From Armatimonadota bacterium (GTDB lineage Bacteria; Armatimonadota; SYMT01): a stretch of 64,000 nt of DNA. Location of the stretch: NCBI GenBank assembly GCA_041690135.1, contig JAWLHY010000001.1:1280001-1344000 (forward strand), read 5' to 3'. A model generated the notes under the pieces. That model was not told where the DNA came from and searched no databases. It worked only from the letters and a program-made list of their open reading frames with translations. The translations under genes and the position numbers were made by a program. Positions 10,154 through 26,362 of the stretch are shown one piece after another. Every line of letters begins with the position of its first letter. The first letter of the stretch is position 1.

Positions 10154-10265
10154 TTGCGAGAGATCCCGCGTTCGCTGCTTGTGCTGACCGCATTCAGGGA
10201 CCTCCACGGTGTCGTACGGCTGCTTCTCCAGACGGGAGCGGACGAGAACTCGCAGCACGGTGATG
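10154..10265 (+). pseudogene. Single ankyrin-repeat remnant
   Basis: SLLVLTAFRDLHGVVRLLLQTGADENSQHGDG; no credible start or continuation. Confidence 0.4.
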
Positions 10266-10350
10266 GTGTGAGTTCTCGAATGCTGCCGTGTGAGGGCATG
10301 CCGAAGTTATGCGTGACTTGCATCGGGGGGAACCGGAGCCATCTTGCGTA

Positions 10351-10920
10351 TCATGCGCCGAAGTGTGGGCGATTGAGGTACGGTCGTGAAACCTCGCAAA
10401 TCGCACCATCTCCGCAATAAACAATATCGAACTGGACGTAGAGACCATCACGGTGACACGCCACCACTCGGCCCGGATTATGGGGTCCTCCGCGGATGTC
10501 GAATCGGTCCCAGACTGTCTGGATCGAAGTCTCCTGCCGAATGGAAGCACAGTCTTCGATGAGTGACAGAAGCCAATTCTGATGGTTGGTTTGGGGATCG
10601 CAGCCCACGCCGAACAGGGTTAGCGTAGGCCGGCCCAACCGCCACACCCTGTCCCGTCCATCTGGGACGTTAAGCAATCGGTCGTGTCCGTCATAGCGGG
10701 GGCCGTCGAATGGCACCAGTTCCACGGCCAACTCCACGAGGTCGCATTCGCGATGAACGTAGCGGCCGTGGCGGAAGGCGTCGCCGCTCTGGAAGAACCG
10801 CTGCTCCAATTGACCCCGCGACATGCCTTCGGAGAGCGCTGCCCAGTCCTCAAAAATGCCCGCAAGCCACTGCTTTTCATCTCGGAACGGATCGTCCGCG
10901 GCGAGCCCGTGCCAACTCAT
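10351..10920 (-). CDS. Hypothetical protein with two tandem copies of a ~85-aa domain
   Basis: W(L/I)..(I/L).ED.A.(L/I)...F...G...R...(L/V).RP.L pattern occurs twice; ATG 10920 with GAAGGAAG SD. Confidence 0.6.
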   Translation of the reverse strand: MSWHGLAADDPFRDEKQWLAGIFEDWAALSEGMSRGQLEQRFFQSGDAFRHGRYVHRECDLVELAVELVPFDGPRYDGHDRLLNVPDGRDRVWRLGRPTLTLFGVGCDPQTNHQNWLLSLIEDCASIRQETSIQTVWDRFDIRGGPHNPGRVVACHRDGLYVQFDIVYCGDGAICEVSRPYLNRPHFGA

Positions 10921-11063
10921 GGGTTCTTCCTTCACAGCTCCGTTACACACGGAAAATGAAAGGCAGCGGCTCTCTCTTGGAGGGAACCGCTGCCTTAACC
11001 TTCACCTAGGGTCACTGGTATCGGCTTACGCCGCCGCCAGTTCCCCCGTTCTGCCGAAATTGC

Positions 11064-11774
11064 TTAACGACGCTGGAGGGCCATCAACAACCGCAGCACG
11101 TACCAGAACAGCAGGGCCACCGCGGCGAACAGTTCCAGGGCCGCCGCCACGTACTGGTCGGTCTCGTACTCATGGAGGACCTTGGAGGTGCTGTAGAGGA
11201 TCGTGCCGCAAGCGAACAGGATCATCGCGGCGCTGAACCAGATGCCCAGGTTGAAGCCGAAGATGGCGCCGCAGATGATCGCTCCCAGCGCCACGATGCC
11301 GCCGACCATCAGCGCTGTACGCAGGAAGGAGAAGTCCTTCTTGGTCATCAGCGTGTAGAACGACAGCCCGCCGAAGGTCAGAATAGTGATACCGGCGGCC
11401 GAAGGCAGTGCTCCGGGAGCCATCACCGCGGCGAGGAAGATCATCGGGGAGAAGATGATCGCCTCGGCCAGAGTGTAGACCGCGAGCCCGCCGTACTGCA
11501 TGGGAAGGCTGCGCGCGGACTGCGCCATCGAGGAGCCCATCCAGCCGGCCAGGGCGAATCCGCCCAGGATCAGCAGCCAGCCGAAGCGGTTGCCGGCGAC
11601 CAGGCTCAGGATCAGGGCGCCGAGACCCACCTGGTAGAACAGGAACGAAAGGGCGACGAAGCCGATGACCGCACCCGTCAGGTGCAGGTAGGTTTTGCGG
11701 ATGAACGCCAGGCGCTCATCCAGGGGAGCGGATATGACCCCGGAATACCCGGGGAACCGATCGGTCATGCTCAT
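11064..11774 (-). CDS. Bax inhibitor-1/YccA family membrane protein
   Basis: ERLAFIRKTYLHL, TKKDFSFL, YVAAALELFAAVALLFWYVLRLL; 7 TM. Confidence 0.9.
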   Translation of the reverse strand: MSMTDRFPGYSGVISAPLDERLAFIRKTYLHLTGAVIGFVALSFLFYQVGLGALILSLVAGNRFGWLLILGGFALAGWMGSSMAQSARSLPMQYGGLAVYTLAEAIIFSPMIFLAAVMAPGALPSAAGITILTFGGLSFYTLMTKKDFSFLRTALMVGGIVALGAIICGAIFGFNLGIWFSAAMILFACGTILYSTSKVLHEYETDQYVAAALELFAAVALLFWYVLRLLMALQRR

Positions 11775-12187
11775 GGAAGCAGTTCTCCTGATGCCGGCAG
11801 AATTGGATCCGGCACTGGCACCAATTCGAATCTAACAAACTCTTGGGAATCCGCCAACCAGACCACCCTCTTGTGCCCTTCCAACGCAACACCTTGCGAC
11901 CGCCGTCCGGCACTCAATGGGATGGCGGCAGGTACCTGTAGAGGAGCGGTCGGCCCTGCACATCGTGCAGGAAGCCAGCTCTGAAGGATAGTTCACCCTC
12001 TGCGGGCCGGAATCCTTCGCCACTGGAGGAAAGGGTTGGAAGTTGGGGATACCGGCAACCGGAAGGGTTTCGTCGCCGCATCGGGCGGGTACTCCCGCTG
12101 TGCGATGCCCGTGTGAAGCTGCACGGCTTCCGGATGCCGCGCGCGACGATGTCGCCGCACGCACAGTACCTCAAAGGAGAAAAGACG

Positions 12188-12379
12188 ATGGCCGATCAAA
12201 CGAGCAACCGGAAAGACCACAAAGAGTCGATCGAAGAGGCGCAGCGCTCCACCTTGCAGCCGGAGTCCGGCAAAAAGGGCGGCGAGATCCCCAGCCAGGG
12301 TCACGGTCCGGCGACCCAGAAGAACCCAGAACACCGTGGGCACGGCGGGAAGGACAAGGACAAGCAGAAGTCGGACTGA
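12188..12379 (+). CDS. Small hydrophilic protein (63 aa), KGG-like stress motif
   Basis: Strong SD AAAGGAG before ATG 12188; highly charged; ESGKKGGE motif. Confidence 0.6.
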   Translation: MADQTSNRKDHKESIEEAQRSTLQPESGKKGGEIPSQGHGPATQKNPEHRGHGGKDKDKQKSD

Positions 12380-12389
12380 GAGGGCATCT

Positions 12390-12773
12390 GTGGGTGTGTC
12401 ACTGTTCGATCGGCAGACGGACGAAATCGTCTTCGACATCAACTTTTGGCATTGGCGCGCCATCGTCGAGGCAGTTCGGTCCCTCGAAGTTCTGCCGGAT
12501 GAGCGAGTGGATGCCCTTCACGAACTGTGGCAAGACACAGGCCTGACGGCGGAAGAGGCGCGCCGGGTCGCATTTGCGATCCGGGAGCGCCTCCTGCCGA
12601 CCTTGCATCCGGAAGAACGCCTGCTGCTCGACGGTACACGGACCACTGCACCGGACGACGGCATCTTTTACACGGTGCCCGCCGAGCGGCATCGCAACTA
12701 CAGCACCACTCCGGACGTCCTCGAACGGTTCGCCATGTGCTGTGAGACCTGCGGTGGTTTCCGCGTCTGTTGA
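12390..12773 (+). CDS. Hypothetical protein
   Basis: GTG 11 nt after the previous stop; protein-like composition (INFWHWRAIVE...NYST...CETCGGFRVC). Confidence 0.65.
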   Translation: MGVSLFDRQTDEIVFDINFWHWRAIVEAVRSLEVLPDERVDALHELWQDTGLTAEEARRVAFAIRERLLPTLHPEERLLLDGTRTTAPDDGIFYTVPAERHRNYSTTPDVLERFAMCCETCGGFRVC

Positions 12774-12796
12774 GCGGTCCTTTCCCTGCAAGTCCC

Positions 12797-15289
12797 TCAC
12801 ATGGCGCGGACCCGCCGCGGTGACGGATTGACCCGCCAGCGGACGTGGCTCAAGAGCTCCGCGGCGCCCCAGGTCGCCAGCACGGATACCGCCACTGCAA
12901 TCGTCCCCGTGAGCCCCATGGGCGTGAGCCCCAACATCTGCCGGAGTGGGGGAAGCAGCACGGTAAGCACCTGCAACCCGATGCTCAGGATGATGATTCC
13001 ATTCAGCACCCCATTCCGTTCGGGCGGGACGTTGACCCGGCGCGCCGGGTAGACGAACACGAGTTGCGCGATCGACTCGTAGAGGAAGACTACGGTGATC
13101 GTTGTTGCGATGCTCAACCCGAACTGTGGCATCAGGGCGAGGAGCGCCAGGCCGACTGCCGCTTTCACGACGCCGGTGGACACCACGAACCGCAGGGAAG
13201 GCGTGTCGAGGAGCGGGGCCGCGGGATCGCGGGGCGGCTGGCGCATCACTTCGCGGTTATGGTCCAGGGCCAGCGCGAGGGCCGGCGGTCCGTCCGCCAC
13301 GATGTTGATCCAGAGGAGCTGCACCGCGGTCAGCGGCAACAGCAGCGCCCCGGCATCATCGCGCGCATTCAACAGCACCGCCGTGAAGGCGGCGATCATC
13401 ACCAGCAGAACCAGCGCCAGGTTGGTCGAGAAGAGGAACCGGATGAATTTCTGGATGTTCTCATAGATGCTTCGCCCTTCTTCCACCGCGGTGACGATTG
13501 TCGCGAAGTTATCGTCCTGAAGCACCAGGTCGGCCACTTCTCGGGTCACGTCACTGCCGCGTTGCCCCATCGCCACCCCGACATCCGAGCGCTTCAGGGC
13601 GGGGGCATCGTTCACCCCGTCGCCGGTCATCGCGACGATCTCCCCATCCGCCTGGAGCGCCTCCACCAGCCGCAGCTTGTCTTCCGGCGCGACGCGGGCG
13701 AAGACGTTGATCTCCCGGGCAACCTGCCGGAGCGCCTCCGGGGTGAGCGACTGGAGTTCGTGGCCGGTGATGGCCCGAGCTGACTGGATACCGATCTCGC
13801 GCGCCACCACCAGGGCGGTTGCCGGGTGGTCGCCCGTGATCATCAGCACGCGGATCCCGGCTTCCTGCGCCCGGCGGATCGCATCCGGTACCTCGGGGCG
13901 CGGCGGGTCCCACAGGGAAACCAGCCCGGCAAACTCCAGGTCCTGTTCCCCCTCCCCTTCTCGCCAGGCCAGCGCCAACATGCGGTAGCCCTCGCCGGCG
14001 TGCTCGGCCACCTTCCGCTCCCAGTCCTTCCGTTCGGCCGGCGTGAGGCGGCACCGGTTCAGGATGACCTCCGGCGCGCCTTTCACGTAACTCACCGGGC
14101 GGCCAGCTTCCTCCACCGTGACGCGCATGAATTTCCGGGCGCTATCGAACGGAACACTCGAGCGGCGGGGATACTCCTGTTGAAGGGTAAGCGGATCGGT
14201 CCCTTGCTCGCGGCTGTATTCCAAAAGCGACACCTCCAGCGGATCGCCTACCCCCGTACCCACTTCGGCGTCATTCGCCAGGACCATGGCGCGCAGGGCG
14301 CGTTCCGGATCGGGAGTGTCCAGGTCCCGCACTTGCATGCGGTTCTCGGTCAGGGTTCCCGTCTTGTCGGTGGCAATCACCGTCACCGATCCGAGGGCCT
14401 CTACGGCGACCATCCGCCGGACCAAGGCCTGGCGGCGCGACATGCGCTCGATCCCGAGCGCCAGCGTCAGGGTCAACACGGCCGGCAGGCCTTCCGGCAC
14501 GGCCGCGACGGCCAGAGCGACGGCGAAGAAGAGAACTCGATTGAACTGGTCCAGGCCTTCGAACAGCAGTCCGAGCGCCACCAGCACCACGGCCAGCGCC
14601 AGCACCCAGCGAGCGATCTGGTGACCGAAGGTCGTCAGGCGGCGCTCCAACGGTGTCTCGCCCGCCTCGATGCCGCCCAGCATCTGCGCCATGCGCCCCA
14701 GGGTGCTCTCCAGGCCGGTGCGCCGGATCTCGGCGATGCCCTTACCCCGCACCAGCAGGGTGCCGCTCAGAACTTCCTCGCCGGCCGGTTTCTCGACCGG
14801 CAGCGACTCTCCGGTAACCACGGCCTCATCCACCAGAACGCCGTCAGCTTCGTGAAGGAGCCCGTCTGCGGGGATGCGGTCGCCGGCCTCCAGCCGCACC
14901 AAGTCCCCCGGCACGAGTTCGCTGCTTGGAATGCGTGCCAGCGTGCCGTCGCGGTAGGTCCACACCTGCGGCGCGGAGAGATCCTGCAAACGGCTGAGAG
15001 CCGCCTCGGCCCGATACTCCTGGAATACTCCGAGCCCCGCGTTCAACAGAAGGATGAAGGCGATGGCAATCGACTCCACCGGTAACCCGTGAGCGCCTTC
15101 CTGGATCCAGGCGAACAGGTCGAACGCGAGGGCAAACAACAGGATATAGATGAGCGGGCTCTGGAACTGGCGCAGAAACCGCCGCCACATCGGTTCCGAC
15201 TGCTCCTCGGGAAGCGCGTTCGGTCCGTATCGCTCGCGCCTCGCCCGGGCTTCCTCGCTGCTCAACCCCTGCCGCATGATCCTCTCCAC
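12797..15289 (-). CDS. Cation-transporting P-type ATPase (P2, Ca2+-like)
   Basis: TGES, VPEGLP, DKTGTLT, KGAPE, DPPR, MITGD, TGDGVNDAPALK motifs. Confidence 0.95.
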   Translation of the reverse strand: MERIMRQGLSSEEARARRERYGPNALPEEQSEPMWRRFLRQFQSPLIYILLFALAFDLFAWIQEGAHGLPVESIAIAFILLLNAGLGVFQEYRAEAALSRLQDLSAPQVWTYRDGTLARIPSSELVPGDLVRLEAGDRIPADGLLHEADGVLVDEAVVTGESLPVEKPAGEEVLSGTLLVRGKGIAEIRRTGLESTLGRMAQMLGGIEAGETPLERRLTTFGHQIARWVLALAVVLVALGLLFEGLDQFNRVLFFAVALAVAAVPEGLPAVLTLTLALGIERMSRRQALVRRMVAVEALGSVTVIATDKTGTLTENRMQVRDLDTPDPERALRAMVLANDAEVGTGVGDPLEVSLLEYSREQGTDPLTLQQEYPRRSSVPFDSARKFMRVTVEEAGRPVSYVKGAPEVILNRCRLTPAERKDWERKVAEHAGEGYRMLALAWREGEGEQDLEFAGLVSLWDPPRPEVPDAIRRAQEAGIRVLMITGDHPATALVVAREIGIQSARAITGHELQSLTPEALRQVAREINVFARVAPEDKLRLVEALQADGEIVAMTGDGVNDAPALKRSDVGVAMGQRGSDVTREVADLVLQDDNFATIVTAVEEGRSIYENIQKFIRFLFSTNLALVLLVMIAAFTAVLLNARDDAGALLLPLTAVQLLWINIVADGPPALALALDHNREVMRQPPRDPAAPLLDTPSLRFVVSTGVVKAAVGLALLALMPQFGLSIATTITVVFLYESIAQLVFVYPARRVNVPPERNGVLNGIIILSIGLQVLTVLLPPLRQMLGLTPMGLTGTIAVAVSVLATWGAAELLSHVRWRVNPSPRRVRAM

Positions 15290-17331: not shown

Positions 17332-17703
17332 TCAGCGGCACTCCACGCACAGTCCCGTTAACTCGGTGTGGTAACCGGTCACCTGGAAGCCGCTTGTTTC
17401 CACCGCCGCCTGCACCACCTCCTGCGGCAGCGACACCAGTACGTCCACCAGTTTTCCGCACCGGTGGCACACTGCATGGTCGTGCCGGTCGGTGCGCCGA
17501 TCGTACTGCGTGACTTCCCCGACTCGGATCTCCTGCAGGTGACCGTCCTCCGCCAGGGCGCTGAGGTTGCGGTAGACCGTCGCATACCCGATCCCAGGAA
17601 GCACCTGGCGTACGCGCTCATAGACCTGCGCCGCCGTCGGGTGATCGCCGGATCGTTCCACGATCTCGAGGATCGCCTGACGCTGTTTCGTCTGTCGCAT
17701 CAT
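17332..17703 (-). CDS. Fur family transcriptional regulator (PerR-like)
   Basis: TKQRQAIL, DHPTA, ATVYRNL, HDHAVCHRCG, CVEC. Confidence 0.93.
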   Translation of the reverse strand: MMRQTKQRQAILEIVERSGDHPTAAQVYERVRQVLPGIGYATVYRNLSALAEDGHLQEIRVGEVTQYDRRTDRHDHAVCHRCGKLVDVLVSLPQEVVQAAVETSGFQVTGYHTELTGLCVECR

Positions 17704-17911
17704 CGGACAGACTCTAGGAAATAGACTTGCATCATCCTGGAGAGCGTTCTACCCAACTGGAGTGGTATGCCGCGCACGTTCCCGGCGGCCCGCTTCTTGG
17801 GGGTCCCATTCACCAGAACATTATACGCTTTCTGGGCTCCGATCTTTTTGCCGCTAAATGTGAAGTCGGTGCTGGTAGTCCATGAGCAGTGGGCGCCCGT
17901 CTTCTGCAGGG

Positions 17912-18070
17912 TGGTTCCGGCACAGGGCGGCTGGTCCCATGATGTCACTACGGAGTCCCAACGCTATCGTGGGGACCTTCCACACATCATGGGAGTTCTC
18001 CGGTACTTGGCGGTCGAGCCCGCATCACAGCATGGGTGACCGCCGGAGTTGCCGTCCCTTTCTGTTCCGT
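17912..18070 (-). ncRNA. Candidate structured RNA (three-way junction), unassigned
   Basis: On the minus strand: AGGGACGGC/GCCGCCCT closing stem, GGCGGTC/GACCGCC arm, perfect 11-bp TCCCATGATGT/ACATCATGGGA arm with inner GTCCC/GGGAC hairpin. G-U pairs favour the minus strand. Confidence 0.35.
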
Positions 18071-18203
18071 CTCCACCCTTGGCTCCCTCAGGGTCTTCTA
18101 TGCTCCGGGAGACTTTCATCGACTTTTTCTATTCGACACACGTATCTGGTGGATCTAGACTTAGCATGGCCCCCGCGCAAACAGACGCCCGGGGTGGAAA
18201 CGG

Positions 18204-19349
18204 GTGGAAGCCATGCGTTCAGCGGTCGAGACGGCGGAGAGAGTGGCGCGCGAGGCACTCGCGCCCTGGGCGGAGCATGTGGACCGGGAGGGTCGCTGGC
18301 CGGCGGAGTCTCGGGCGGCGCTCGGTGGAGCCGGGTTGCTTGGGCTCGCTGTCCCCGAAGCCTATGGAGGCCTCGGTGCTTCTCCGACCGTGGTGTCGGC
18401 GGTCGTGCGCACGCTGGCGGAGAGTTGTGCCTCCACGGCGATGATCTTCATGATGCACGTGTGCGCGCAGCAGGTGATCGCACAGGCGGAGGCGTTCCCC
18501 TTTCGTGAGGAGATTCTCCGGGCGATGGCCCGCGGGGAGCACCTCAGCACCCTGGCCTTCAGCGAGAAGGGCTCGCGGAGCCACTTCTGGGCGCCGGTGA
18601 GCCAGGCCGTGGCCGACGGAGACATCCATCGGCTCAGTGCGGAGAAGTCCTGGGTCACCAGCGCGGGACAGGCGGACAGTTACGTCGTGTCCACCCGCAG
18701 CACCGCGGCAGCGGAGATGACCGCTTCCACGCTTTACTATGTCCCGAACGGCGCCGCCGGGCTCAGCGTGGCGGGCTCTTGGTCTGGCCTCGGCCTTCGC
18801 GGGAATGCCAGCGCGCCGATGCGGCTCAAAAACGTGTCGGTGCCCGCTTCGCACCGCTTGAGCGGCGAGGGCGAAGGGTTCGGTGCGATGCTCAGCGTGG
18901 TCCTCCCCTGGTTTCAGCTCTGCAGCGCGTCCGTTTCCGTGGGGATCGCCGCGGCGGCGACGGAGGCCACCCGGCGCCACCTGATGGCCTCCAAACTGGA
19001 GCACCTGGACCAATCCCTGGCCTCCCTGATGAACCTGCGCGCGCGGTTGGCCCAGATGCAGATCGCCGTCGACACCCAGCGCGTGTTCCTGAACCACGTG
19101 GCGGGCCGGATGGAGAATCCCGGCCCCGACACGATGCTGGCAGTGCTGGAGAGCAAAGCCGCCGCCGCCGAGGTGGCGCTCGAGGTGACCGATCTGGCGA
19201 TGCGGACCTGCGGAGGCGCCGCGTTTAGCCGGCACCTGGGTGTGGAGCGGAATTTCCGTGATGCCCGCGCCGGGGCGGTGATGGCCCCCACGACCGACGT
19301 ACTGCATGATTTCATCGGCAAGGCACTCCTTGAGATGCCGCTGTTCTGA
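18204..19349 (+). CDS. Acyl-CoA dehydrogenase-fold flavoprotein (non-canonical)
   Basis: LGLAVPEAYGGLG, LAFSEKGSRS, KSWVTSAG, GLGLRGNAS, CGGAAF, VERNFRDARA; usual catalytic Glu not apparent. Confidence 0.9.
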   Translation: MEAMRSAVETAERVAREALAPWAEHVDREGRWPAESRAALGGAGLLGLAVPEAYGGLGASPTVVSAVVRTLAESCASTAMIFMMHVCAQQVIAQAEAFPFREEILRAMARGEHLSTLAFSEKGSRSHFWAPVSQAVADGDIHRLSAEKSWVTSAGQADSYVVSTRSTAAAEMTASTLYYVPNGAAGLSVAGSWSGLGLRGNASAPMRLKNVSVPASHRLSGEGEGFGAMLSVVLPWFQLCSASVSVGIAAAATEATRRHLMASKLEHLDQSLASLMNLRARLAQMQIAVDTQRVFLNHVAGRMENPGPDTMLAVLESKAAAAEVALEVTDLAMRTCGGAAFSRHLGVERNFRDARAGAVMAPTTDVLHDFIGKALLEMPLF

Positions 19350-19387
19350 TGCCGCTCTTTTGAAGCCGCTTACTTGAGGGTACCCCT

Positions 19388-20221
19388 ATGGACCGTCCGA
19401 TCTTGATTGGCGCCGTCGCCTACGACCAGCGTGTGGTCCCGATCTGGGAAGGCATGCGCGACTACTTCCGCGAGGCCGGCATGCCGATCGACTACGTCCT
19501 CTACTCGAACTACGACCGGCAGGTAGAGGCCCTCCTGGACCGGCAAATCGATATCGCCTGGAACACCAACCTGGCCTGGCTGAAGGTCTGTCGCCGCACC
19601 GACAACCGCTGCCGGGCGCTCGCGATGCGGGATGTGGACGCCGATTTCAAGACCGTTTTCGTGGCGCGGACGGACAGCGGCATCCAGTCGCTCGCCGATA
19701 TTCATGGCAAGCGTCTGGCCCTCGGCTCCGCCGACTCCGGTCAGGCCGCCATCCTTCCCATTGAGTTTCTCCGCGAAGCCGGCGTGGATGCCGAGCGAGA
19801 GTGCCGGGTGTCCCGGTTCAACCTGGACGTGGGCAAACACGGCGACACGGGCACCAGCGAGCTGGAAGTTCTGCGCGCCCTCCGTGACGGGGAGGCGGAT
19901 GCGGGCGCCATGGCGGACTCTACCTGGATCCGGCAGGTCACCGAAGGACGGGTGGACCCGACGCAGGTGCGCGCGATCTGGACCTCTCCCGGCTACTGCC
20001 ACTGCAACTTCACGGTCCTGGAAGATTTCCCCGAAGAAGTCGGGCGCAACTGGACCGGCACTCTCCTGACGATGACCTACGACAATCCTCGCTGGCGGGA
20101 GTTGATGGACCTGGAGGGCCTCAAGCGCTGGCTGGAGGCCACGCCGGAGGTGATGAAGGGCTACGATAGCCTCTGGGAAGCGGTGGAGCGCCAGGGCCTG
20201 ACCCGCAACTGGCCGTCGTGA
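19388..20221 (+). CDS. PhnD/SsuA-type substrate-binding-fold protein lacking a signal peptide
   Basis: YDRQVEALLDRQIDIAW, IQSLADIHGKRLALGSADS, ALRDGEADAG; hydrophilic N-terminus. Confidence 0.85.
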   Translation: MDRPILIGAVAYDQRVVPIWEGMRDYFREAGMPIDYVLYSNYDRQVEALLDRQIDIAWNTNLAWLKVCRRTDNRCRALAMRDVDADFKTVFVARTDSGIQSLADIHGKRLALGSADSGQAAILPIEFLREAGVDAERECRVSRFNLDVGKHGDTGTSELEVLRALRDGEADAGAMADSTWIRQVTEGRVDPTQVRAIWTSPGYCHCNFTVLEDFPEEVGRNWTGTLLTMTYDNPRWRELMDLEGLKRWLEATPEVMKGYDSLWEAVERQGLTRNWPS

Positions 20222-21495
20222 GTTCCCGAATGGAAGAGTTTCCGCAGCCGGCAGCGCTGGTCGAGGGCGGCGCACTGGAAGTGGGCAACGGCCTGCTGAT
20301 GCTTCTTCGCGAAGCCATGGAGCCGCTCCCGCCGGACGCCGTGGTGGCCGTACGCGCCTCCCACCCCACGGTGGCTCACGACCTGCCCGCCTGGTGCCGG
20401 GTGATGGCGCATACGTACATGGGTGCGGCGTCCGGCCCGGATGGAACGGTCTACTACTTCCGGAAGAGCCCCTTCCTCCCCATCGCCACCGAAGAGCGGC
20501 CGGACTGGGGGGTGCGGATGCCCCGTCGCGACAACGGGGAACTCCACACACGGGATTGGATGGTCGGCCGGGTGGAGGCGGTGCCGGACCGGGCGACCAC
20601 CACCACCGGATTCGCGCCGCGTGGAGCCGTAGTAGAGCAGGGCGCGCCGGCTTTCGACTTCACCATCAACGAGCGCTCCGCGGTGTGGGCGGCGGAGGTC
20701 GCGGATCTCTACGAGCAGGCGACGGCCAACCAGTGGGACGCCTCTCGCGATATTCCGTGGGACCGCCTGGAGCCGCTGCCGGAACCGCTGGAGCGGGCTG
20801 TCTGCCAGTTGATGACGTTTCTGACGGAGAACGAGTACTCTGCTCTCTACGTCCCCGCGAAGTTCGTCCCGCGCATCAACCCGCAGTTCAATGAAGTCGT
20901 GATGTTCCTCTGCACGCAGATGATGGATGAATCACGGCACATCGAGGCTTTCACCAAGCGTGCCCTGGCCAACGGCGGCGGGCTCCAGTACTCGGCCGCG
21001 TCAACCCAGCTCAGCCTGAAGACGCTGTTCGATCAACACGACTTCACCTCCGCCTCCTTCCTCCTCTCCGTGCTTGGCGAGGGGACCTTCCTGGATCTCC
21101 TGCGGTTCATCGAGACGCACGCGCCGGACCCGGTAACCGCCGAGATCTGTCGCCGCGCGCGCGTGGACGAGACGCGCCACGTGCATTTCGGGATGGCCCA
21201 CATGCGCTACTACCTCGCGCAGGACCCGGCCAACTATGAGCACCTCGAACGGGCGGTGCGGGAGCGGGCCGCGTTCATGCAGTCGGTGACGGAGGTGAGC
21301 CCGCGGGTCCAGGAAGCGCTGGCGATCCTCGCGGCGGGTGGCTTGAACGCGGACCGCCTGCCGGAAGGGCTGGCGAAAGTGCGGGCTCTCGTGAGTGAGA
21401 TGCACGAGCACCGCATGCGCCGTCTCTTGGCCGCCGGCTTCTCCGCGGAGCAGGCAGTCGAGATCTCCCGCCTCCACACCCCGAACTTCATGTAA
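20218..21495 (+). CDS. TusA-like N-terminal domain fused to a ferritin-like diiron-carboxylate domain
   Basis: N-term LREAMEPLPPDAVVAVRASHPTVAHDLPAWCR (TusA/SirA-like); ENE...DESRH...GEG...DETRH diiron ligands; GTGA overlap with the upstream stop. Confidence 0.8.
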   Translation: MSSRMEEFPQPAALVEGGALEVGNGLLMLLREAMEPLPPDAVVAVRASHPTVAHDLPAWCRVMAHTYMGAASGPDGTVYYFRKSPFLPIATEERPDWGVRMPRRDNGELHTRDWMVGRVEAVPDRATTTTGFAPRGAVVEQGAPAFDFTINERSAVWAAEVADLYEQATANQWDASRDIPWDRLEPLPEPLERAVCQLMTFLTENEYSALYVPAKFVPRINPQFNEVVMFLCTQMMDESRHIEAFTKRALANGGGLQYSAASTQLSLKTLFDQHDFTSASFLLSVLGEGTFLDLLRFIETHAPDPVTAEICRRARVDETRHVHFGMAHMRYYLAQDPANYEHLERAVRERAAFMQSVTEVSPRVQEALAILAAGGLNADRLPEGLAKVRALVSEMHEHRMRRLLAAGFSAEQAVEISRLHTPNFM

Positions 21496-21599: not shown

Positions 21600-21629
21600 T
21601 TGACATCCCCCCGCGCGAGCCGCTACTAT
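21600..21629 (+). promoter_or_regulatory. Sigma70-type promoter for tRNA-Gln
   Basis: TTGACA-N18-TACTAT, ending 10 nt before the tRNA 5' end. Confidence 0.75.
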
Positions 21630-21639
21630 ACAACCACGT

Positions 21640-21712
21640 TGCCGGATAGCTCAGTTGGCAGAGCGACTGACTCTGGATCAGTAGGTCCTAGGTTCGAGCC
21701 CTAGTCCGGCAG
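21640..21712 (+). tRNA. tRNA-Gln (anticodon CTG), CCA not encoded
   Basis: Cloverleaf: TGCCGGA/TCCGGCA acceptor, GCTC/GAGC D-arm, ACTGA-CTCTGGA-TCAGT anticodon arm, CTAGG-TTCGAGC-CCTAG T-arm; U1-A72, G73. Confidence 0.97.
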
Positions 21713-21781
21713 TGTTTCCCACCCCATTGGATTGACCAGGAGCGCCCCTTCCCGCTGCGCCCCGACGTCGATCGCAAAAGA

Positions 21782-21861: not shown

Positions 21862-23589
21862 GTGAGCCAGGGACAAGAAGTGGAGAAGACGGTAACTTCG
21901 GCGGACTCCGCGGGTCGTCGCGAAGTGCCGACCGACTACATCCGGGAAGCGATCAAGGAAGACCTCCGCAACGGACGGTTCGACCGCGTGCACACGCGCT
22001 TTCCTCCGGAGCCGAACGCCTACCTGCACATCGGGCACGCGAAGGCCGTCTGGATCGACTACGGCATCGCGCTGGACTTCGGCGGGTTGTTCAACCTGCG
22101 CTTCGATGATACGAACCCGGTGCGCGAAGATCAGGAGTTTGTGGACGGCATTATCGAGGACGTGCGCTGGCTCGGTGCCGACTGGGGTGACCGGCTCTGC
22201 TTCGCATCCGACTACTTCGAGCAGATGTACGCGTGGGCTCTTGACCTGATCCGCAAGGGTAAGGCCTACGTGTGCGATCTTACGGCGGAGGAGCTGAGCG
22301 CCACCCGCGGCACCCTCACCACTCCGGGCCAGGAAAGTCCCTTCCGGAACCGCAGCGTGGAGGAGAACCTGGACCTGTTCGCGCGCATGCGGGCCGGCGA
22401 ATTTCCCGACGGCGCCCGGACGCTCCGCGCGAAGATCGACATGGCCTCGCCGAACATGGTCATGCGCGATCCCGTGATGTACCGCATCCTTCATACCAAG
22501 CACCATCGCCAGGGCGATAAGTGGTGCATCTACCCGACCTACGACTGGGCCCACGGCCTCGAGGATTCCATCGAGGGGGTCACCCACTCCCTCTGCTCGC
22601 AGGAGTACGAGATCCACCGGCCGCTCTATGACTGGTTCCTGGATGAACTGGACATCTATCATCCGCGCCAGATCGAGTTCGCGCGCCTGAACCTGACCCA
22701 CACCGTGATGAGCAAGCGCCGCTTCATCGAGCTGGTGAACGGAGGGCACGTCCAGGGCTACGACGATCCCCGGCTGCCGACGCTCGCCGGGCTGCGCCGC
22801 CGCGGCTACACGCCCGAAGCGATTCGGGAGTTCTGCCGTCGGATCGGCGTCTCTAAGACGGATAGCTGCGTGGAAGTGGCGTACCTGGAAGACTGCGTCC
22901 GCGAGGACCTGAACCGGTGGTCGCCCCGCGTGATGTCTGTGCTGGACCCGCTGAAGGTGGTGCTGGTGAACTACCCCGAGGGCCAGACGGAAGAGCTCGA
23001 CGTCATCAACAACCCCGAGGATCCCGCCGCCGGAACCCGCAAGGTGACCTTCGCCCGCGAGCTGTACATCGAGCGCGACGACTTCCGCGAGGAGCCGCCG
23101 CCCAAGTTCTTCCGGCTGGCTCCCGGTCGTGAGGTCCGGCTGCGGAACGCCTACCTGGTCCGGTGCGTGGACGTGATCAAGGACGCGGAAGGCAACGTCA
23201 CCGAGGTCCACTGCACCTACGATCCGGAGACCCGCGGTGGGGATGCGCCGGACGGACGCAAGGTAAAGGCTACCCTGCACTGGCTCGCGGCCCCGGCAGC
23301 CGTTCCGGCCGAGGTCCGGCTCTACGACCACCTGTTCGTGAAACCGGATCCGGACGACGTGGAGCCCGGCCAGACCTACTTCGACAATCTCAACCCGAAC
23401 TCGCTGAAGGTGGTCTCGGGATTTGTGGAACCGGCCGTAGCCGAAGCGGCCCCCGGCACGCGCTACCAGTTCGAGCGCCTGGGTTACTTCTGCGTGGACA
23501 AGGAATCCACGCCGGAGAGACCCGTCTTCAACCGGACAGTTACCCTCCGCGATACCTGGGCCAAAATCGAAAAGCGCACGGGCAAGTAA
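21862..23589 (+). CDS. glnS: Glutamine--tRNA ligase
   Basis: [56 protein letters not shown]. Confidence 0.97.
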
Positions 23590-23716: not shown

Positions 23717-25687
23717 ATGAAACCTCTCCCTCTCGCTTATCGCCAGGTCCACCTCGACTTCCACACTTCGGAACTGATCACCGGGATCGGCCGCGACTTC
23801 GATGCCGGCCGCTTCGCGCGCACGCTCAAAGAAGCGCACGTTAATTCCGTGACCTGCTTCTCCCGCTGCCACCACGGGATGATCTACCACGACACCCGGT
23901 TCCCCGCGCGGCATCCGCACCTGGAAGTCAACCTGCTCCAGGAGCAGATCGAGGCCTGTCACGCGGAGGGCATCCGGGTGCCGATCTACATCAGCGTGGG
24001 CTTCGACGAGTTCATGGCCCGGCGCCATCCGGAATGGGTGGAACTGGGCGGGGACGGAAAGGTCCGGGGCGCGGCGCCGCTGGAGGCGGGCTGGCGCAAA
24101 CTCTGTCTCAATACCCCCTACATCGATTACGTCTCCGAGCAGACGCAGGAAGTGCTGTCCCTCTTCCCCACGGATGGGCTGTTTTTCGACATCATCCACC
24201 AGGGGCCGTGCTGTTGTCGCTGGTGCATGGAGGGCATGCAGGCGGAGGGCGTCGACCCGGAAGACGAAGGTCAGCGGAAGGCCTACGCGCGAGAAGTGCT
24301 GAACCGCCTCCGGACACGCATCACCCGGGAGGTGCGCGAGGTCAACCCGGACTGCCTGATCTTCTGGAACAGCGGCCACGTGGACCCCACCTTCCGGCCG
24401 GTGCTCCACACCTTCTCCCACCTGGAGATCGAGAGCCTCCCCAGTGGCGGGTGGGGCTATGATCATTTCCCCACTTCGGTCCGCTACGCCCGCAACCTGG
24501 GCCTCGACCACCTGGGGATGACCGGCAAGTTCCACAAGACCTGGGCCGGTTTCGGGGAGTTCAAGAACCCTCCGGCCCTGGAGTACGACTGCTTCACCGC
24601 CCTGGCCGAAGGCAGCAAATGCTCCATCGGCGACCAGCTCCATCCCAACGGGGAGCTGGACCCCGCCACGTACGAGCTCATCGGGGGCGTCTATGCGCAA
24701 GTGGCAGCCCGCGAGCCGTGGTGCGCCGGGGCGAAGGCGGTGACGGAGATCGCCATCTTCAATCCGGAGGCCATTGGGGTCCACGATGGCCGGGTCGATA
24801 CCTCCGCGGGTGGCGCGCACCGGATGCTGGTGGAGGCCCACTACCAGCACGACATGGTGGACGAGGAGATGGACTGGTCTCGCTACCGGGTCCTGATCTT
24901 ACCGGACAAAATCCGCCTCCACGACGCGCTCGCCGCGAAGTTCCGGGCTTATCTCGCCCAGGGAGGCAGCCTCATCGCCTCCCATCTCTCGGGGTTGGCC
25001 GCGGACCGCGACGAGTTTGTTCTGCCGGAACTCGGCGTGACCTACCGCGGTGTAGCGCCCTTTTCACCGGACTACGTGGCGCCGGGACCGGAGATCGCCG
25101 CGGGCATCCCGGCGAGCCAGCACGTGATGTACGAGCGCGGCCTGGAGGTGGAGACGAAAGGCGCGGAGGAGTTGGCACGCGTTTGGCACCCCTATTTCAA
25201 CCGCACCTACGCGCACTTCTGCAGCCACCGTCATACCCCTGCGGAGAAAGAGAGCCCCTTCCCGGCTGTAACCCGGAACGGGCGGGTGATCTACTTCGCC
25301 CATCCCCTCTTCGCCGCGTTCAAACAGCACGGCCTTCGGGTCTATAAGCAGCTCTTCCTGAACGCCCTTCGCCTGCTGCTTCCCGAGCCCCTGATCGCGA
25401 CCGACGCCCCCTCCACGGCCCGGATCTCGCTCGCCCGCCAGGACAATCCGGTCCGTACGATCGTCCATCTCCTCCACTACATCCCGGAACAGCGCTACCG
25501 CGAGACGCCCATGGTCGAGGAAGCGCTGCCGCTCTTCAACGTGAGCCTGGCCGTCCGCCTGGACCACGAACCCGCCCGCGTTTACCTCGCCCCGGATGGC
25601 GCTTCCCTCCCTTTCACCTGGTCCAACGGCAGGGTTCACCTCACCGTCCCTGAAGCTCGCGGCCACGTGATGGTGGTGTTCGAATGA
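23717..25687 (+). CDS. Glycoside hydrolase, GH151/GHL6-like (putative alpha-L-fucosidase) with beta-galactosidase trimerisation-like domain
   Basis: RQVHLDFHTS, FSRCHHG, DGLFFDI, HLEIESLPSGGWGY, GMTGKFHKTW, IGDQLHP; start taken at ATG 23717. Confidence 0.8.
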   Translation: MKPLPLAYRQVHLDFHTSELITGIGRDFDAGRFARTLKEAHVNSVTCFSRCHHGMIYHDTRFPARHPHLEVNLLQEQIEACHAEGIRVPIYISVGFDEFMARRHPEWVELGGDGKVRGAAPLEAGWRKLCLNTPYIDYVSEQTQEVLSLFPTDGLFFDIIHQGPCCCRWCMEGMQAEGVDPEDEGQRKAYAREVLNRLRTRITREVREVNPDCLIFWNSGHVDPTFRPVLHTFSHLEIESLPSGGWGYDHFPTSVRYARNLGLDHLGMTGKFHKTWAGFGEFKNPPALEYDCFTALAEGSKCSIGDQLHPNGELDPATYELIGGVYAQVAAREPWCAGAKAVTEIAIFNPEAIGVHDGRVDTSAGGAHRMLVEAHYQHDMVDEEMDWSRYRVLILPDKIRLHDALAAKFRAYLAQGGSLIASHLSGLAADRDEFVLPELGVTYRGVAPFSPDYVAPGPEIAAGIPASQHVMYERGLEVETKGAEELARVWHPYFNRTYAHFCSHRHTPAEKESPFPAVTRNGRVIYFAHPLFAAFKQHGLRVYKQLFLNALRLLLPEPLIATDAPSTARISLARQDNPVRTIVHLLHYIPEQRYRETPMVEEALPLFNVSLAVRLDHEPARVYLAPDGASLPFTWSNGRVHLTVPEARGHVMVVFE

Positions 25688-25749
25688 GGGTGATCGCAGT
25701 TGGCAATAATTGCCATCAAGAGGTAGACTCTGATCCAGGAGGAAGATCC

Positions 25750-26034
25750 ATGGCGGTCGAAACAATCAACTTCTCCTTACCGGAGCCACTCAAGCGTTTC
25801 GTTGATGAGCGAGTAGCCGGAGGCGGTTACAGCAGTGCGAGCGAGTACTTGCGCGAACTGATTCGAAAGGATCAGGAACGGCAAGACCGGCAGCACTTGC
25901 TGGTCGAAAAACTGGAAGCATTGCTGCTCGAAGGGTTGAATAGCGGCGAAGCAATCGAATGGACGCCGGAATACCGGGCTCAACGTCGGGAACGTCTGAT
26001 TGCGAGAGCTAAAGCGGAAGGTTGCCGGCCGTAG
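25750..26034 (+). CDS. ParD-family (CC2985-like RHH) antitoxin
   Basis: TINFSLPEPLKRFVDERVAGGGYSSASEYLRELIRKDQ...LLLEGLNSG; AGGAGG SD. Confidence 0.9.
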   Translation: MAVETINFSLPEPLKRFVDERVAGGGYSSASEYLRELIRKDQERQDRQHLLVEKLEALLLEGLNSGEAIEWTPEYRAQRRERLIARAKAEGCRP

Positions 26035-26038
26035 GAAC

Positions 26039-26362
26039 ATGAACCCCCTCGCGATTAACGTACATCCACGCGCCGAAGAGGACTTGGAAGATGCGTTCAT
26101 GTACTTCTCGCGTCGGGCGGGCATCAGTGTGGCCGAGAAGTTTGATGACGCCGTCGGCCGGACTTTGAGCTTGCTGGCGGAACAGCCCGAACTGGGGGCG
26201 ACCGCAACCTTCCGCTCCCGCGGGCTTGCGGACGTCCGAAGATGGGCCGTTCCGGAGTTCAGAAGCTACCTCATTTTCTACCGTTTGACGGAAAGGTCTA
26301 TCGAAGTTCTCCGGGTTCTTCACGGAGCACGCGACCTGGAGCCGCTCCTTCTCGAGGAGTAA
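26039..26362 (+). CDS. ParE/RelE-family toxin
   Basis: PRAEEDLE...PELG...YLIFYR...IEVLRVLHGARDL. Confidence 0.9.
   Translation: MNPLAINVHPRAEEDLEDAFMYFSRRAGISVAEKFDDAVGRTLSLLAEQPELGATATFRSRGLADVRRWAVPEFRSYLIFYRLTERSIEVLRVLHGARDLEPLLLEE

Follow-up and report, generated by a model that had tools for sequence, protein, structure and literature searches.

Periplasmic binding proteins of the PhnD, PtxB, HtxB and AioX type serve ABC importers and sensors, while the ACAD fold includes non-dehydrogenases, namely 3-sulfinopropanoyl-CoA desulfinase and the flavin monooxygenases of the SfnB, DszC and HsaA type, that keep the ACAD architecture without its usual catalytic Glu. TusA is a sulfur carrier and takes part in DsrE-TusA relays, and a ferritin-like four-helix core with E / ExxH / E / ExxH ligands is found in VlmB homologues, the R2-like ligand-binding oxidase (R2lox), the cyanobacterial aldehyde-deformylating oxygenase (ADO) and class Ic RNR R2. 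According to the account of the enzyme in PMC11705231, VlmB oxidizes a hydrazine to an azoxy group and is encoded inside a larger gene cluster.

The system closest to the locus described here is a cassette of mycobacteria and their relatives, curated in NCBIfam as the Rv1679-family ACAD (NF049984), the Rv1680-family SBP-like protein (NF049985) and the Rv1681-family radical SAM protein (NF049973), with the mycobacterial names Rv1679 (FadE16), Rv1680 and Rv1681 (‘MoeX’). Here, we describe three linked genes in a 64,000-nucleotide stretch of an Armatimonadota genome (the window), which are the diiron form of this cassette, a radical SAM enzyme replacing the diiron protein in the mycobacterial version. 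The first-pass annotation knew of no characterized example; the NCBIfam relative shows that the trio is not without precedent, even if that precedent is named but uncharacterized, and literature searches found no published function for either the trio or the Rv1679/Rv1680/Rv1681 cassette.

A conserved three-gene module

An ORF scan finds three co-oriented, closely spaced ORFs on the + strand within 18204-21495 (Table 1), in line with the tight linkage and the 38-bp gap between the ACAD and SBP genes that had been reported at first pass. The GTGA overlap claimed for the SBP gene and the third gene (gene 3) depends on the start chosen: it is present if gene 3 begins at GTG 20218, and is replaced by an 8-bp gap if it begins at ATG 20230, the start that matches the 421-aa database copy (P0001). 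Shuffled sequence gave a mean of 0.5 sigma-70-like sites, compared with 2 here, which are consensus matches only; no riboswitch was tied to the trio and no reductase gene adjoins it in the window.

Table 1. Features of the locus, in window coordinates.
Feature	Position	Strand	Description
Fur/PerR-family regulator gene	17332..17703	-	divergent, about 500 bp upstream of the trio
Sigma-70-like promoter consensus match	18133..18161	+	weak, 9/12 positions; upstream of the ACAD gene
ACAD-fold gene	18204..19349	+	381 aa; flavoprotein of the Rv1679-like clade
SBP-like gene	19388..20221	+	277 aa; PhnD-like SBP fold, Rv1680-like clade
Gene 3	20218..21495	+	425 aa; ferritin-like diiron oxidase with an N-terminal TusA-fold domain
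TusA-fold domain	20236..20469	+	gene 3 residues 7-84; without carrier Cys
Diiron (or Mn/Fe) carboxylate oxidase domain	20563..21492	+	gene 3 residues 116-425

Related loci come from at least seven phyla, the taxa represented, going by record titles, being Planctomycetota, Armatimonadota, Actinomycetota, Chloroflexota, Acidobacteriota, Bacillota, Melainabacteria/Sericytochromatia and Myxococcota, and the trio occurs among them in two gene orders. The ACAD and SBP genes both adjoin gene 3 in 60 of the 73 related loci that lack the Cys of the TusA site, and in 47 of the 50 among these 73 that have DNA on both sides of gene 3. This arrangement goes far past chance and defines a conserved module: the genes do co-occur elsewhere, and the counts, together with the missing signal peptide described below, uphold the earlier view of a compact cytoplasmic unit of three genes. 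Two loci (L036 and L075) have the SBP gene but no ACAD gene although DNA is available, and L073 has neither; because of these loci, and of a solo VMAPT-type ACAD elsewhere in the window's own genome, the ACAD may be dispensable to the module.

In the loci examined, the trio has no further conserved neighbour, and the neighbourhoods contain no transporter or conserved regulator that links it to a pathway, nor any importer, ssu, phn, cys or pho genes. In L056 and L059, gene 3 is immediately preceded by genes of the NAD(P)H/flavin reductase type, one is assigned to the same place in L061 from its clustering with these two, and L077 has a nitroreductase there. L065 has a sulfatase gene nearby, and L059 an Rrf2 regulator. 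The divergent Fur-family gene of the window (PF01475, 84.6 bits; best NCBIfam match the PerR-like NF047406 with 110.4 bits, below the cut-off of 200) is a mere neighbour outside the conserved module. A Fur homologue adjoins none of the 80 related loci (tblastn, E <= 1e-10), so that any link between Fur and the trio is at most local, and the metal/peroxide regulation proposed at first is not sustained.

Departures of the three proteins from their families

In the first gene product, the Pfam ACAD N, M and C domains are all present, the C-terminal domain being better matched by PF00441 (60.2 bits) than by the oxygenase-type PF08028 (30.2 bits). In the displayed alignments its ‘vmaptt’ stands opposite ‘iyegt’ in three of four PDB chains and opposite ‘iytgt’ in the fourth, and V-M-A-P-T is retained in 56 of 57 ACAD relatives and recurs in mycobacterial-type and divergent copies (L109, L116-L119). 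The helix-G site reads LPWF or APTF, so that, as noted at first pass, Glu is missing from both usual catalytic positions. Membership among the ACAD-fold non-dehydrogenases would nevertheless be only putative, since the window protein scores far under every curated cut-off, with 135.3 bits for 3-sulfinopropanoyl-CoA desulfinase (cut-off 600), 118.0 for SfnB (430.9) and 78.6 for DszC (850).

The SBP-like protein has fold and family in common with the periplasmic binding proteins (PF12974, 127.2 bits; profile of alignment A3 against 7s6g, E 7.9e-33) and differs from them in its missing signal peptide, its missing ABC partner genes and its altered anion-site motif. The reading frame has just 8 codons between its ATG and the stop upstream (1-16 in many relatives), which leaves a signal peptide no room to fit, and no ABC permease/ATPase gene was found among the ORFs scanned, covering 12.8-28 kb of the window; on both points the first reading was correct. 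In place of the S-S-T-S-G or N-S-T-S-G of PtxB/PhnD-type structures, this family carries D-S-(G/A)-Q-A, whose Asp is invariant, so that the phosph(on)ate-type motif is, to judge from the alignments, altered. A further difference lies in the invariant K150, H151, D153, H205 and C206, which with D116 are conserved in alignment A3 and shared with the radical SAM-type copy; D116, H151, D153, H205 and C206 are presumably pocket-lining positions in PhnD-type proteins. NCBIfam itself labels the family ‘SBP-like’, with the model type ‘exception’.

The predicted model of gene 3 (pLDDT 86.0, pTM 0.73) has a TusA fold over residues 7-84 (VIA: 3lvj_C, Z 11.8, rmsd 2.3, 77 aligned), followed by an R2/ADO/VlmB-like fold whose top match, the VlmB homologue of Kitasatospora setae (PDB 6d9f/8wvr), gives Z 23.0, rmsd 2.8 and 256 aligned residues for 6d9f_A, with a sequence E-value of 2.1e-5. 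R2lox (4hr0_A, Z 21.1), ADO (5ux2_B, Z 20.7) and class Ic RNR R2 (Z 19.9) follow. In alignments of 20 and of 18 sequences the ligands E206, E238, H241, E288, E318 and H321 do not vary, and fold comparison and ligands together support the reported fusion of a TusA-like domain to a complete diiron site. The resemblance has clear limits: identity to these four kinds of protein is merely 13-20%, none of them has a TusA-fold domain, partners of the SBP fold or from this clade of ACAD-fold proteins are not known for any, and the larger VlmB-type gene cluster is absent around the trio.

What does not survive from the first-pass annotation is the sulfur carrier. V22/G23 occupy the carrier Cys position in gene 3 (TusA alignment; loop residues of 82 sequences), and the Cys is absent from the window protein and from 73 of 80 relatives, two of these 73 being uncovered at the site. 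The same residues stand there in the other ACAD/SBP-linked copies, except L010 and with L064 and L077 uncovered. Several of these copies have S, A, V or L in place of the second Cys (C60), and the TusA Pfam score of the window protein (23.9) lies under the cut-off of 28.6. The remaining 7 of the 80 relatives have a loop Cys, and in six of these seven loci a DsrE-like gene lies directly upstream and ACAD and SBP are missing, while L010 combines the loop Cys with both. Such a set is encoded in the window's genome, too: a paralogue of gene 3 (53% identity) that bears the Cys, together with a DsrE-like protein (PF02635, 57.7 bits) and a TusA protein rich in Cys. Because the Cys-bearing paralogue adjoins a DsrE-like gene, the TusA-fold domain of gene 3 appears to descend from a sulfur relay, although, in contrast to TusA and DsrE-TusA relays, it is predicted to bind a protein and not to carry sulfur. 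Each of the three proteins thus departs from its family in the way first claimed, apart from this supposed function.

The radical SAM form of the cassette

The radical SAM form is represented by genome G248, with scores of 637.6 bits for the ACAD, 493.1 for the SBP and 537.6 (NF049973) for the third gene; a gene 3 homologue is absent there (E <= 1e-5). Both forms have an identical gene order in which the third gene runs across the stop codon of the SBP gene, an ACAD with V-M-A-P-T replacing the catalytic motif, a cytoplasmic SBP-like protein carrying the invariant residues of the window SBP, and a third protein that starts with a short domain resembling a Cys-less TusA fold. They differ in the third enzyme, a radical SAM protein instead of a diiron oxidase, and the window ACAD and SBP remain below the family cut-offs (454.6 bits against 600 for NF049984; 358.6 against 400 for NF049985).

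An HMM built on the TusA-fold domain of gene 3 matches residues about 6-62 in 121 of 121 Rv1681-family proteins, with a median of 10.4 bits and a maximum of 19.4 (maximum of 726 decoys, 3.3); the hhalign comparison is weak (probability 9%, E 0.0036, 58 columns). The Rv1681 N-terminal model is alpha-beta-alpha-beta-beta, equivalent to the gene 3 domain minus its first strand, and also lacks the former Cys loop. A quick tree groups the radical SAM-type SBP as sister with 17 actinobacterial SBPs of the diiron type (SH-aLRT 98). The exchange of enzymes does not imply the same function, since the scaffold could be common to both forms and the reaction of the radical SAM enzyme another one.

A possible three-subunit oxidase and its alternatives

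Complex modelling, which the first-pass annotation had suggested, placed the SBP-like protein on the TusA-fold domain of gene 3, with scores of 0.80, 0.80 and 0.72 and 0.00 for the best of three controls. Of 157 solved complexes, 116 attain the mark used for such scores, as do 2 of 215 mismatched pairs, a calibration that is approximate because the models were built on our own alignments. The runs have at least 96% of contacts in common, with a partner pLDDT of at least 90, and the predicted interface comprises residues 21-24, which are the former Cys loop, together with 27, 51-64 and 84-89. The TusA-fold domain is therefore predicted to be a docking surface for the SBP-like protein; we know of no solved SBP-TusA complex.

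Building on the observed gene arrangement, conservation, motif losses, folds and radical SAM form, we tentatively propose, with a probability of roughly 45%, that the trio is one cytoplasmic, oxygen-dependent enzyme system of three subunits. The SBP-fold protein would be a soluble subunit, not part of a transporter, whose remodelled pocket of invariant Asp, Lys, His and Cys may keep a small polar ligand or intermediate. By docking on the N-terminal, Cys-less TusA-fold domain of gene 3, this protein would be tethered to the ferritin-like diiron (or Mn/Fe) oxidase, a relative of the VlmB-homologue, R2lox and ADO proteins. As the proton-abstracting Glu is lost throughout the clade, the ACAD-fold protein would carry out a step other than classical alpha,beta-dehydrogenation, either an oxygenation with reduced flavin or a non-redox elimination. 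What we infer beyond those observations is that a complex forms, how its steps follow one another and that its chemistry is oxidative. Of the earlier interpretation, this proposal retains the conserved cytoplasmic unit and drops the sulfur carrier, the metal/peroxide regulation and the lack of any known example. A link to sulfur, selenium or phosphorus is possible, hinted at by the DsrE-like genes beside Cys-bearing paralogues and by the altered phosph(on)ate-type motif.

A more specific version of this proposal names the substrate class and is, in our view, rather unlikely: nutrient scavenging by oxidative C-S or C-P cleavage of a small organosulfur or organophosphorus anion, which the SBP would bind and the diiron enzyme would cleave, with the ACAD in the role of a desulfinase or of a flavin monooxygenase like SfnB/DszC. 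Radical SAM and diiron forms of C-P cleavage are both known, and the SBP matches phosphonate/phosphite, selenate and sulfonate families (PF12974, as above; TIGR04553 114.9; TIGR01098 81.8; SsuA 33.0). The sub-cut-off ACAD matches to desulfinase, SfnB and DszC, the DsrE-like genes beside Cys-bearing relatives and the sulfatase and Rrf2 genes can also be read this way. However, the sulfur hints come from single loci, the anion motif of PtxB/PhnD-type structures is replaced, the ACAD matches acryloyl-CoA reductase equally well (147.8 bits), and the neighbourhoods examined lack the importer, ssu, phn, cys and pho genes.

It is improbable that gene 3 acts like RNR R2 or R2lox, passing a metal-centred oxidant or radical to an ACAD-fold or SBP-fold partner, with the mycobacterial radical SAM enzyme as an activase. 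The best Foldseek matches, R2lox and the class Ic (Mn/Fe) R2 of Chlamydia, and the VIA scores for R2 and R2lox speak for it, as does the extreme C-terminal tail (..HTPNFM), conserved as in R2 proteins. F245, four residues past H241, is invariant in the aligned sequences, at what we take to be the position of the radical Tyr in E. coli R2, where class Ic has Phe; the diiron/radical SAM exchange parallels that between class I and class III RNR. Nevertheless, the top structural match is a VlmB-homologue/ADO-type oxidase with small-molecule substrates, no radical-accepting residue or partner was identified, and the R2lox model NF006200 gives 31.6 against a cut-off of 194.

We consider it quite improbable that the TusA-like domain ferries a persulfide or selenium species to or from the diiron site in a pathway that makes or oxidizes a sulfur compound. 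The Cys-bearing relatives next to DsrE-like genes, the corresponding set in the window's genome and L010 would suit such a relay, but the V22/G23 loop, the inconstant C60 and the sub-threshold Pfam score would not, and the former Cys loop forms part of the modelled SBP interface. Very doubtful, too, is the delivery of a metal ion or metallocofactor by the SBP-like protein, bound through its invariant His, Cys and Asp and loaded into the metalloenzyme on which it docks, whether diiron or Fe-S radical SAM. Such delivery would account for the conserved residues at presumed pocket positions, and for the pairing of one SBP-like protein with two unrelated metalloenzymes through a predicted dock on their common N-terminal domain, but leaves the invariant ACAD partner unexplained, and the modelled interface is on the TusA-fold domain, not at the metal site. 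A chance meeting of a beta-oxidation ACAD of the ordinary kind, an orphan SBP of a transporter and an unrelated ferritin-like protein is hardly credible. Each gene has ordinary Pfam matches, but the trio is intact, in either of two orders, in nearly all fully visible loci from many phyla, the whole ACAD clade has lost the catalytic Glu, a signal peptide does not fit the SBP and NCBIfam gives its ‘SBP-like’ family the model type ‘exception’.

The trio is a widely conserved yet unstudied module, the proposed oxygen-using counterpart of an equally unstudied mycobacterial three-gene cassette.

The locus and its surroundings

The three genes considered here, namely an ACAD-fold gene (gene 1), an SBP-like gene of the PhnD fold (gene 2) and a gene joining a TusA-fold domain to a diiron domain (gene 3), are best explained as encoding a cytoplasmic oxidase of three subunits in which the SBP-fold subunit holds the substrate, a small polar metabolite, a reading to which we give a probability of roughly 0.45. 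As the first-pass annotation had described, the genes are tightly linked and co-oriented, with a gap of 38 bp between the first two and a GTGA overlap between the second and third if gene 3 starts at GTG 20218; the ATG at 20230, which is the start implied by the 421-residue database copy of the protein (P0001), would leave an 8-bp gap. The unit ends before a tRNA-Gln gene, which has its own promoter-like site, and the gene for glutaminyl-tRNA synthetase (GlnRS), the tRNA gene thus adjoining that of its cognate synthetase.

Features of the window and of the related loci discussed in the text
Feature	Position	Strand	Remarks
Fur-family gene	17332-17703	-	PF01475, 84.6 bits (gathering 23.1); divergent, ~500 bp upstream of the ACAD gene
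Fur-ACAD spacer	17704-18203		~500 bp
Gene 1, ACAD-fold	18204-19349	+	ORF, 381 aa
Gene 2, SBP-like	19388-20221	+	ORF, 277 aa
Gene 3, TusA-fold and diiron	20218-21495	+	ORF, 425 aa from GTG 20218
Promoter-like site of tRNA-Gln	21600-21629		
tRNA-Gln	21639-21713	+	anticodon CTG
GlnRS gene	21862-23589	+	directly downstream of tRNA-Gln
ParD-like antitoxin gene	25684-26034	+	PF03693, 24.5 bits; overlaps the ParE gene
ParE toxin gene	26000-26362	+	PF05016, 57.2 bits
Cys-bearing gene 3 paralogue locus, same genome	G000:C3:60418-62834 (L087 8418-10834)		
Solo V-M-A-P-T ACAD, same genome	G000:C15:73779-74945 (L088 8779-9945)		NF049984, 265.7 bits
Cys-bearing locus with ACAD and SBP (L010)	3937-7221		Sericytochromatia MAG
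Divergent ACAD and SBP-like operon (L117)	2678-13650		Actinomycetota; also L118

A divergent Fur/PerR gene had also been reported upstream, and a Fur-family gene is indeed present, its best NCBIfam match being the PerR-like equivalog NF047406, whose cut-off of 200 bits it misses with a score of 110.4. As a partner of the trio it did not hold up, since no Fur homologue lies next door in any of the 80 loci analysed (E <= 1e-10, a threshold that distant homologues could escape), these being the best 80 of the 358 stretches of species-representative genomes that encode a gene 3 relative. The spacer between the Fur-family and ACAD genes is unusually long for such gene-dense DNA and holds one weak promoter-like site only, with no operator-like inverted repeat and no Rfam match. 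Between 17000 and 22000 the tRNA is the sole RNA match, with no riboswitch, and no riboswitch or leader RNA reached the gathering score in 11 Bacillota-type loci.

The three proteins

Gene 1 passes the three Pfam ACAD domain models, scoring 61.1 bits with PF02771 (cut-off 22.9), 46.8 with PF02770 (33.3) and 60.2 with PF00441 (22.4). Among solved structures, those nearest to it belong to ordinary short-chain ACADs (3pfd, E 2.1e-36). The catalytic Glu base of ACADs is sited either in a Y-E-G-T motif or at a position in helix G. In our alignments the gene 1 residues V-M-A-P-T lie opposite Y-E-G-T in three of the four PDB chains displayed (the fourth, 7p98, has Y-T-G-T), while the helix-G position reads L-P-W-F in the window and LPWF or APTF in the family; the protein consequently has at neither site the Glu that would mark a catalytically competent ACAD, just as had been noticed from the sequence. 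The V-M-A-P-T motif is found in 56 of 57 ACADs from related loci (the remaining one has V-M-G-P-T). A mycobacterial-type copy and divergent copies share it, as does another, solo ACAD encoded by the window's own genome, so loss of the base is a property of the whole ACAD clade. The solo gene has no SBP-like or gene 3 partner at its locus; it adjoins a large hybrid histidine kinase gene, with an ABC exporter-type gene and another kinase further upstream.

The closest NCBIfam model to gene 1 is NF049984, 'Rv1679 family acyl-CoA dehydrogenase' (454.6 bits, under the cut-off of 600), with models for desulfinase, SfnB, DszC and acryloyl-CoA reductase all scoring far lower and roughly equally. Homology alone, as read from these sequence comparisons, does not tell whether the protein would serve as an oxygenase, as an eliminase or in another role. 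We rate a system for oxidative C-S or C-P cleavage in scavenging as unlikely.

Gene 3 matches known families only below threshold, with TusA at 23.9, DUF455 at 17.6, AurF at 16.1 and R2lox at 31.6 bits (cut-offs of 28.6 for TusA PF01206, 29.6 for AurF PF11583 and 194 for R2lox NF006200). Its structure model, built from 20 sequences (pLDDT 86.0, pTM 0.73), has a TusA fold at residues 7-84 (VIA match to 3lvj_C: Z 11.8, rmsd 2.3, 77 aligned, 21% identity). The remainder is matched by the VlmB homologue 6d9f_A (Z 23.0, rmsd 2.8, 256 aligned, 20% identity), R2lox 4hr0 (Z 21.1), the aldehyde-deformylating oxygenase 5ux2 (Z 20.7) and RNR R2 6y2n (Z 19.9), and Foldseek agrees with these VIA assignments. 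The invariant residues E206, E238, H241, E288, E318 and H321 align with the ligands of 6d9f, giving, on a four-helix core, the E / ExxH / E / ExxH arrangement of a ferritin-like diiron carboxylate oxidase or oxygenase, which would bind an Fe/Fe or Mn/Fe cofactor and react with O2. The initial placing of this site in the AurF/PaaA type has to be abandoned on the AurF score and on that of 2jcd_A, whose Z of 13.8 is well under the top matches. We consider it decidedly unlikely that gene 3 is an R2-like radical generator. Four relatives of the diiron domain, 448-479 aa long (P0305, P0365, P0383 and P0392), match it only from residue 122-153 onwards and so seem to have another N-terminal domain where the TusA fold would be.

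The loop before helix 1 of TusA holds the Cys that carries the persulfide. The HMMER alignment of gene 3 with E. coli TusA begins four residues past this Cys, and the corresponding site is G23 by ungapped extension or V22 by the family alignment, neither of them a Cys; a second Cys, C60, is replaced in several ACAD/SBP-linked copies. Of the TusA-like sulfur carrier fused to a diiron site that had been proposed, the fold and the six ligands therefore stand and the carrier residue does not. No Cys was found in the TusA loop in 73 of the best 80 loci, two of which (L064 and L077) are without coverage at the site. The other seven bear a Cys in the loop (D-L-D-C-G-S/T-G), and six of them have a DsrE-like gene directly upstream and no ACAD or SBP. 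The window's own genome encodes such a Cys-bearing paralogue on another contig, 53% identical to gene 3 and preceded by a DsrE-like gene (PF02635, 57.7 bits) and a Cys-rich protein ending in a Cys-containing TusA domain; upstream of the set, on the opposite strand, is a gene for 4'-phosphopantetheinyl transferase. The DsrE-linked paralogues make a working DsrE/TusA-type sulfur relay the probable ancestor of the gene 3 TusA-fold domain, the Cys having been lost later. That the trio itself is a true sulfur relay is, in our estimate, highly unlikely. The seventh Cys-bearing locus, L010, is the only one among the best 80 to join a Cys-bearing TusA loop with ACAD and SBP, and may represent a stage between the form linked to DsrE and that linked to ACAD and SBP.

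Gene 2 passes PF12974 (127.2 bits, gathering 27) and falls under the cut-offs of TIGR03431 (53.9 against 261.1 bits) and of its closest NCBIfam model, NF049985 'Rv1680 family SBP-like protein' (model type 'exception'; 358.6 against 400 bits). An export signal (signal peptide or lipobox) does not fit this gene, since its ORF opens with the first strand of the fold and there is room for only 8 in-frame codons back to the upstream stop (1-16 in many relatives). No ORF scanned from 12.8 to 28 kb of the window encodes an ABC permease or ATPase, nor is either kind of gene conserved near gene 2 in related loci, so the original description of an SBP-fold gene lacking both export signal and ABC partners holds. 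The D-S-(G/A)-Q-A motif of the family aligns with S-S-T-S-G in 7s6g and N-S-T-S-G in 5lq5, two solved proteins of the phosphite-/phosphonate-binding type in which this position is presumably the oxyanion-binding motif at a helix N-terminus. The family invariants K150, H151, D153, H205 and C206 are common to the mycobacterial-type copy. Judged from these alignments, the pocket looks remodelled, apparently closer in character to an active site, or to a site for a metal or cofactor, than to one for phosph(on)ate; a role for the module in cofactor or metal delivery has, in our estimate, a very slim chance.

Conservation of the trio

A word-index search with gene 3 scored 8000 candidates, 3151 of them with E <= 0.001, and a full scan of 50%-identity representatives returned 1205 relatives at that threshold, 563 at 1e-10 and 164 at 1e-30. 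Both ACAD and SBP accompany gene 3 in 60 of the 73 Cys-less loci, with one only in six and neither in seven. Where DNA is available on both sides (50 Cys-less loci), 47 keep the trio, two have the SBP only (L036 and L075) and one has neither (L073), which upholds the co-occurrence proposed as a check by the first-pass annotation and makes chance adjacency of the three genes next to impossible. The trio is arranged either as ACAD-SBP-gene 3 or as gene 3-ACAD-SBP.

All-against-all clustering of 809 ORFs from the 80 loci, in which antisense shadow ORFs confound the GC-rich loci, revealed no conserved neighbours beyond the trio, and Pfam scans of 45 and a further 16 neighbour ORFs gave local items only, for instance LysR, Rrf2 and reductases. 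Immediately before gene 3, Bacillota-type loci carry either a thioredoxin-reductase-like gene (L056, L059 and, inferred from clustering, L061) or one for a nitroreductase (L077), in keeping with a demand for external reducing power. Carriers are soil and freshwater bacteria of many phyla and the module is patchy inside phyla, with SBP-like matches (E <= 1e-40) in 4 of 201 genomes from the phylum to which the window belongs, its own included, and in 14 of 301 Actinomycetota genomes, one of these being the unpublished G153, which enters this count only.

Candidate fusions were unconvincing. P0244 (834 aa), the sole protein from a search for longer relatives, has an extra part without a Pfam hit, and in P0031 (499 aa) only ~70 SBP residues precede gene 3; two long open frames (678 and 604 aa) that surround SBP matches were ruled out because the genes sit in different frames.

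Predicted docking and the radical SAM form

Complex prediction, the other proposed check followed up here, was run with an 18-row alignment of gene 3 and a 20-row alignment of the SBP-like protein. The pair scored 0.80, 0.80 and 0.72 in three runs, against 0.00 for the best of three controls, with at least 96% of contacts shared between runs and a partner pLDDT of at least 90. Of the solved complexes, 116 of 157 attain the mark used for such scores, as do 2 of 215 mismatched pairs, counts that are only rough here because custom alignments were used. On the gene 3 side the predicted interface comprises residues 21-24, where the Cys loop used to be, residue 27, residues 51-64 with the invariant W59, and residues 84-89, almost wholly within the TusA-fold domain, and on the SBP side residues 82-90, 177-199 (including W180) and 231-247. 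We know of no solved complex between an SBP and a TusA-fold domain, so a memorised structure seems unlikely to explain the score. The model thus favours binding of the SBP-like protein to gene 3 without proving it.

The closest named counterpart of the module is the mycobacterial Rv1679-Rv1681 cassette, which likewise has a VMAPT-type ACAD followed by an SBP-like gene lacking a signal peptide, but in which the third gene encodes a radical SAM protein (NF049973) instead of a diiron protein. One genome, G248, carries this form, with its ACAD matching NF049984 at 637.6 bits, its SBP-like protein NF049985 at 493.1 bits and an overlapping third gene reaching 537.6 bits with NF049973, 'Rv1681 family radical SAM protein'. 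A protein of identical sequence bears a mycobacterial label, and the genome holds no gene 3 homologue (E <= 1e-5). Conversely, a radical SAM query found no match between 12 and 28 kb of the window or in the 80 loci (E <= 1e-8). The window's module is therefore a diiron variant of a curated, unstudied cassette.

We considered Rv1681 as a homologue of the diiron domain, both being ~330 aa, and rejected this since it is a radical SAM protein. The VIA matches listed for the whole protein fall on the radical SAM barrel. Its N-terminal domain, the first ~62 residues, does resemble the TusA-fold domain of gene 3. The likeness is weak by hhalign (probability 9%, E 0.0036, 58 columns), while an HMM of the gene 3 domain matches the N-terminal stretch in all 121 Rv1681-family proteins (median 10.4, maximum 19.4 bits), the maximum among 726 shuffled or reversed decoys being 3.3 bits. 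The modelled N-terminus (pLDDT 74-91) runs helix-strand-helix-strand-strand, the TusA order minus its first strand.

A quick tree places the radical SAM-type SBP as sister (SH-aLRT 98) to 17 diiron-type actinobacterial SBPs within a 65-row clade, and the direction of the swap is not settled by it because the branch is long (0.89) and the tree unrooted. At 13 actinobacterial SBP loci (G153 and a broken G001 copy left out), the third gene beside the SBP is gene 3 in seven and the radical SAM gene in one; three have neither within 1.5 kb, and two are cut by a contig end. Among the three with neither, L105 has no radical SAM gene, while L107 and L108 belong to a divergent clade with a longer operon and a different radical SAM gene ~4.4 kb downstream. 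In L117 and L118, a divergent ACAD and SBP-like pair sits in a longer operon behind a TldD/PmbA pair and is followed by genes for a DUF2064 protein, one unknown protein, an NAD-dependent epimerase, a member of the CMD family and a radical SAM protein of 275 aa.

The literature searched reports no function for Rv1679, Rv1680 or Rv1681, and at listing level it contains no TusA/ferritin-like (or DsrE) fusion of the gene 3 kind. For the families, a protein atlas gives the same names. In PMC4202705 Rv1681 is called 'MoeX, possible molybdopterin biosynthesis protein', a label at odds with its radical SAM family by NF049973, and in PMC8562490 Rv1680 is called a putative phosphonate transporter component from structure modelling. 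The earlier statement that no characterised example is known consequently stands as far as published function goes, but curated families do exist; more broadly, what the first-pass annotation observed is confirmed and its interpretation partly supported.

In the oxidase that we favour, the invariant core would be the base-less ACAD with the cytoplasmic SBP-fold protein, to which a third, oxidant- or radical-generating enzyme (diiron or radical SAM) would be attached via a TusA-fold adaptor. A fuller joint reading, which we offer as tentative, is that a Cys-less TusA-fold domain, formerly part of a DsrE/TusA relay, may have become a docking adaptor that plugs an enzyme-like cytoplasmic SBP-fold subunit onto interchangeable enzymes, diiron in most phyla and radical SAM in mycobacteria and their relatives (Rv1681, 'MoeX'); together with the base-less ACAD-fold flavoprotein, this would form an undescribed three-component architecture carrying out a reaction new to the literature.

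The module is self-contained, and its link to Rv1679-Rv1681 sets three M. tuberculosis genes for the first time in a structural and evolutionary framework. The link predicts an interface between the SBP and the TusA-fold domain with named residues, a swap between diiron and radical SAM enzymes, and a function, as catalytic residues or as ligands, for the invariant pocket residues of an SBP not engaged in transport. If confirmed, these predictions would establish a new use for the TusA fold and for the SBP fold.
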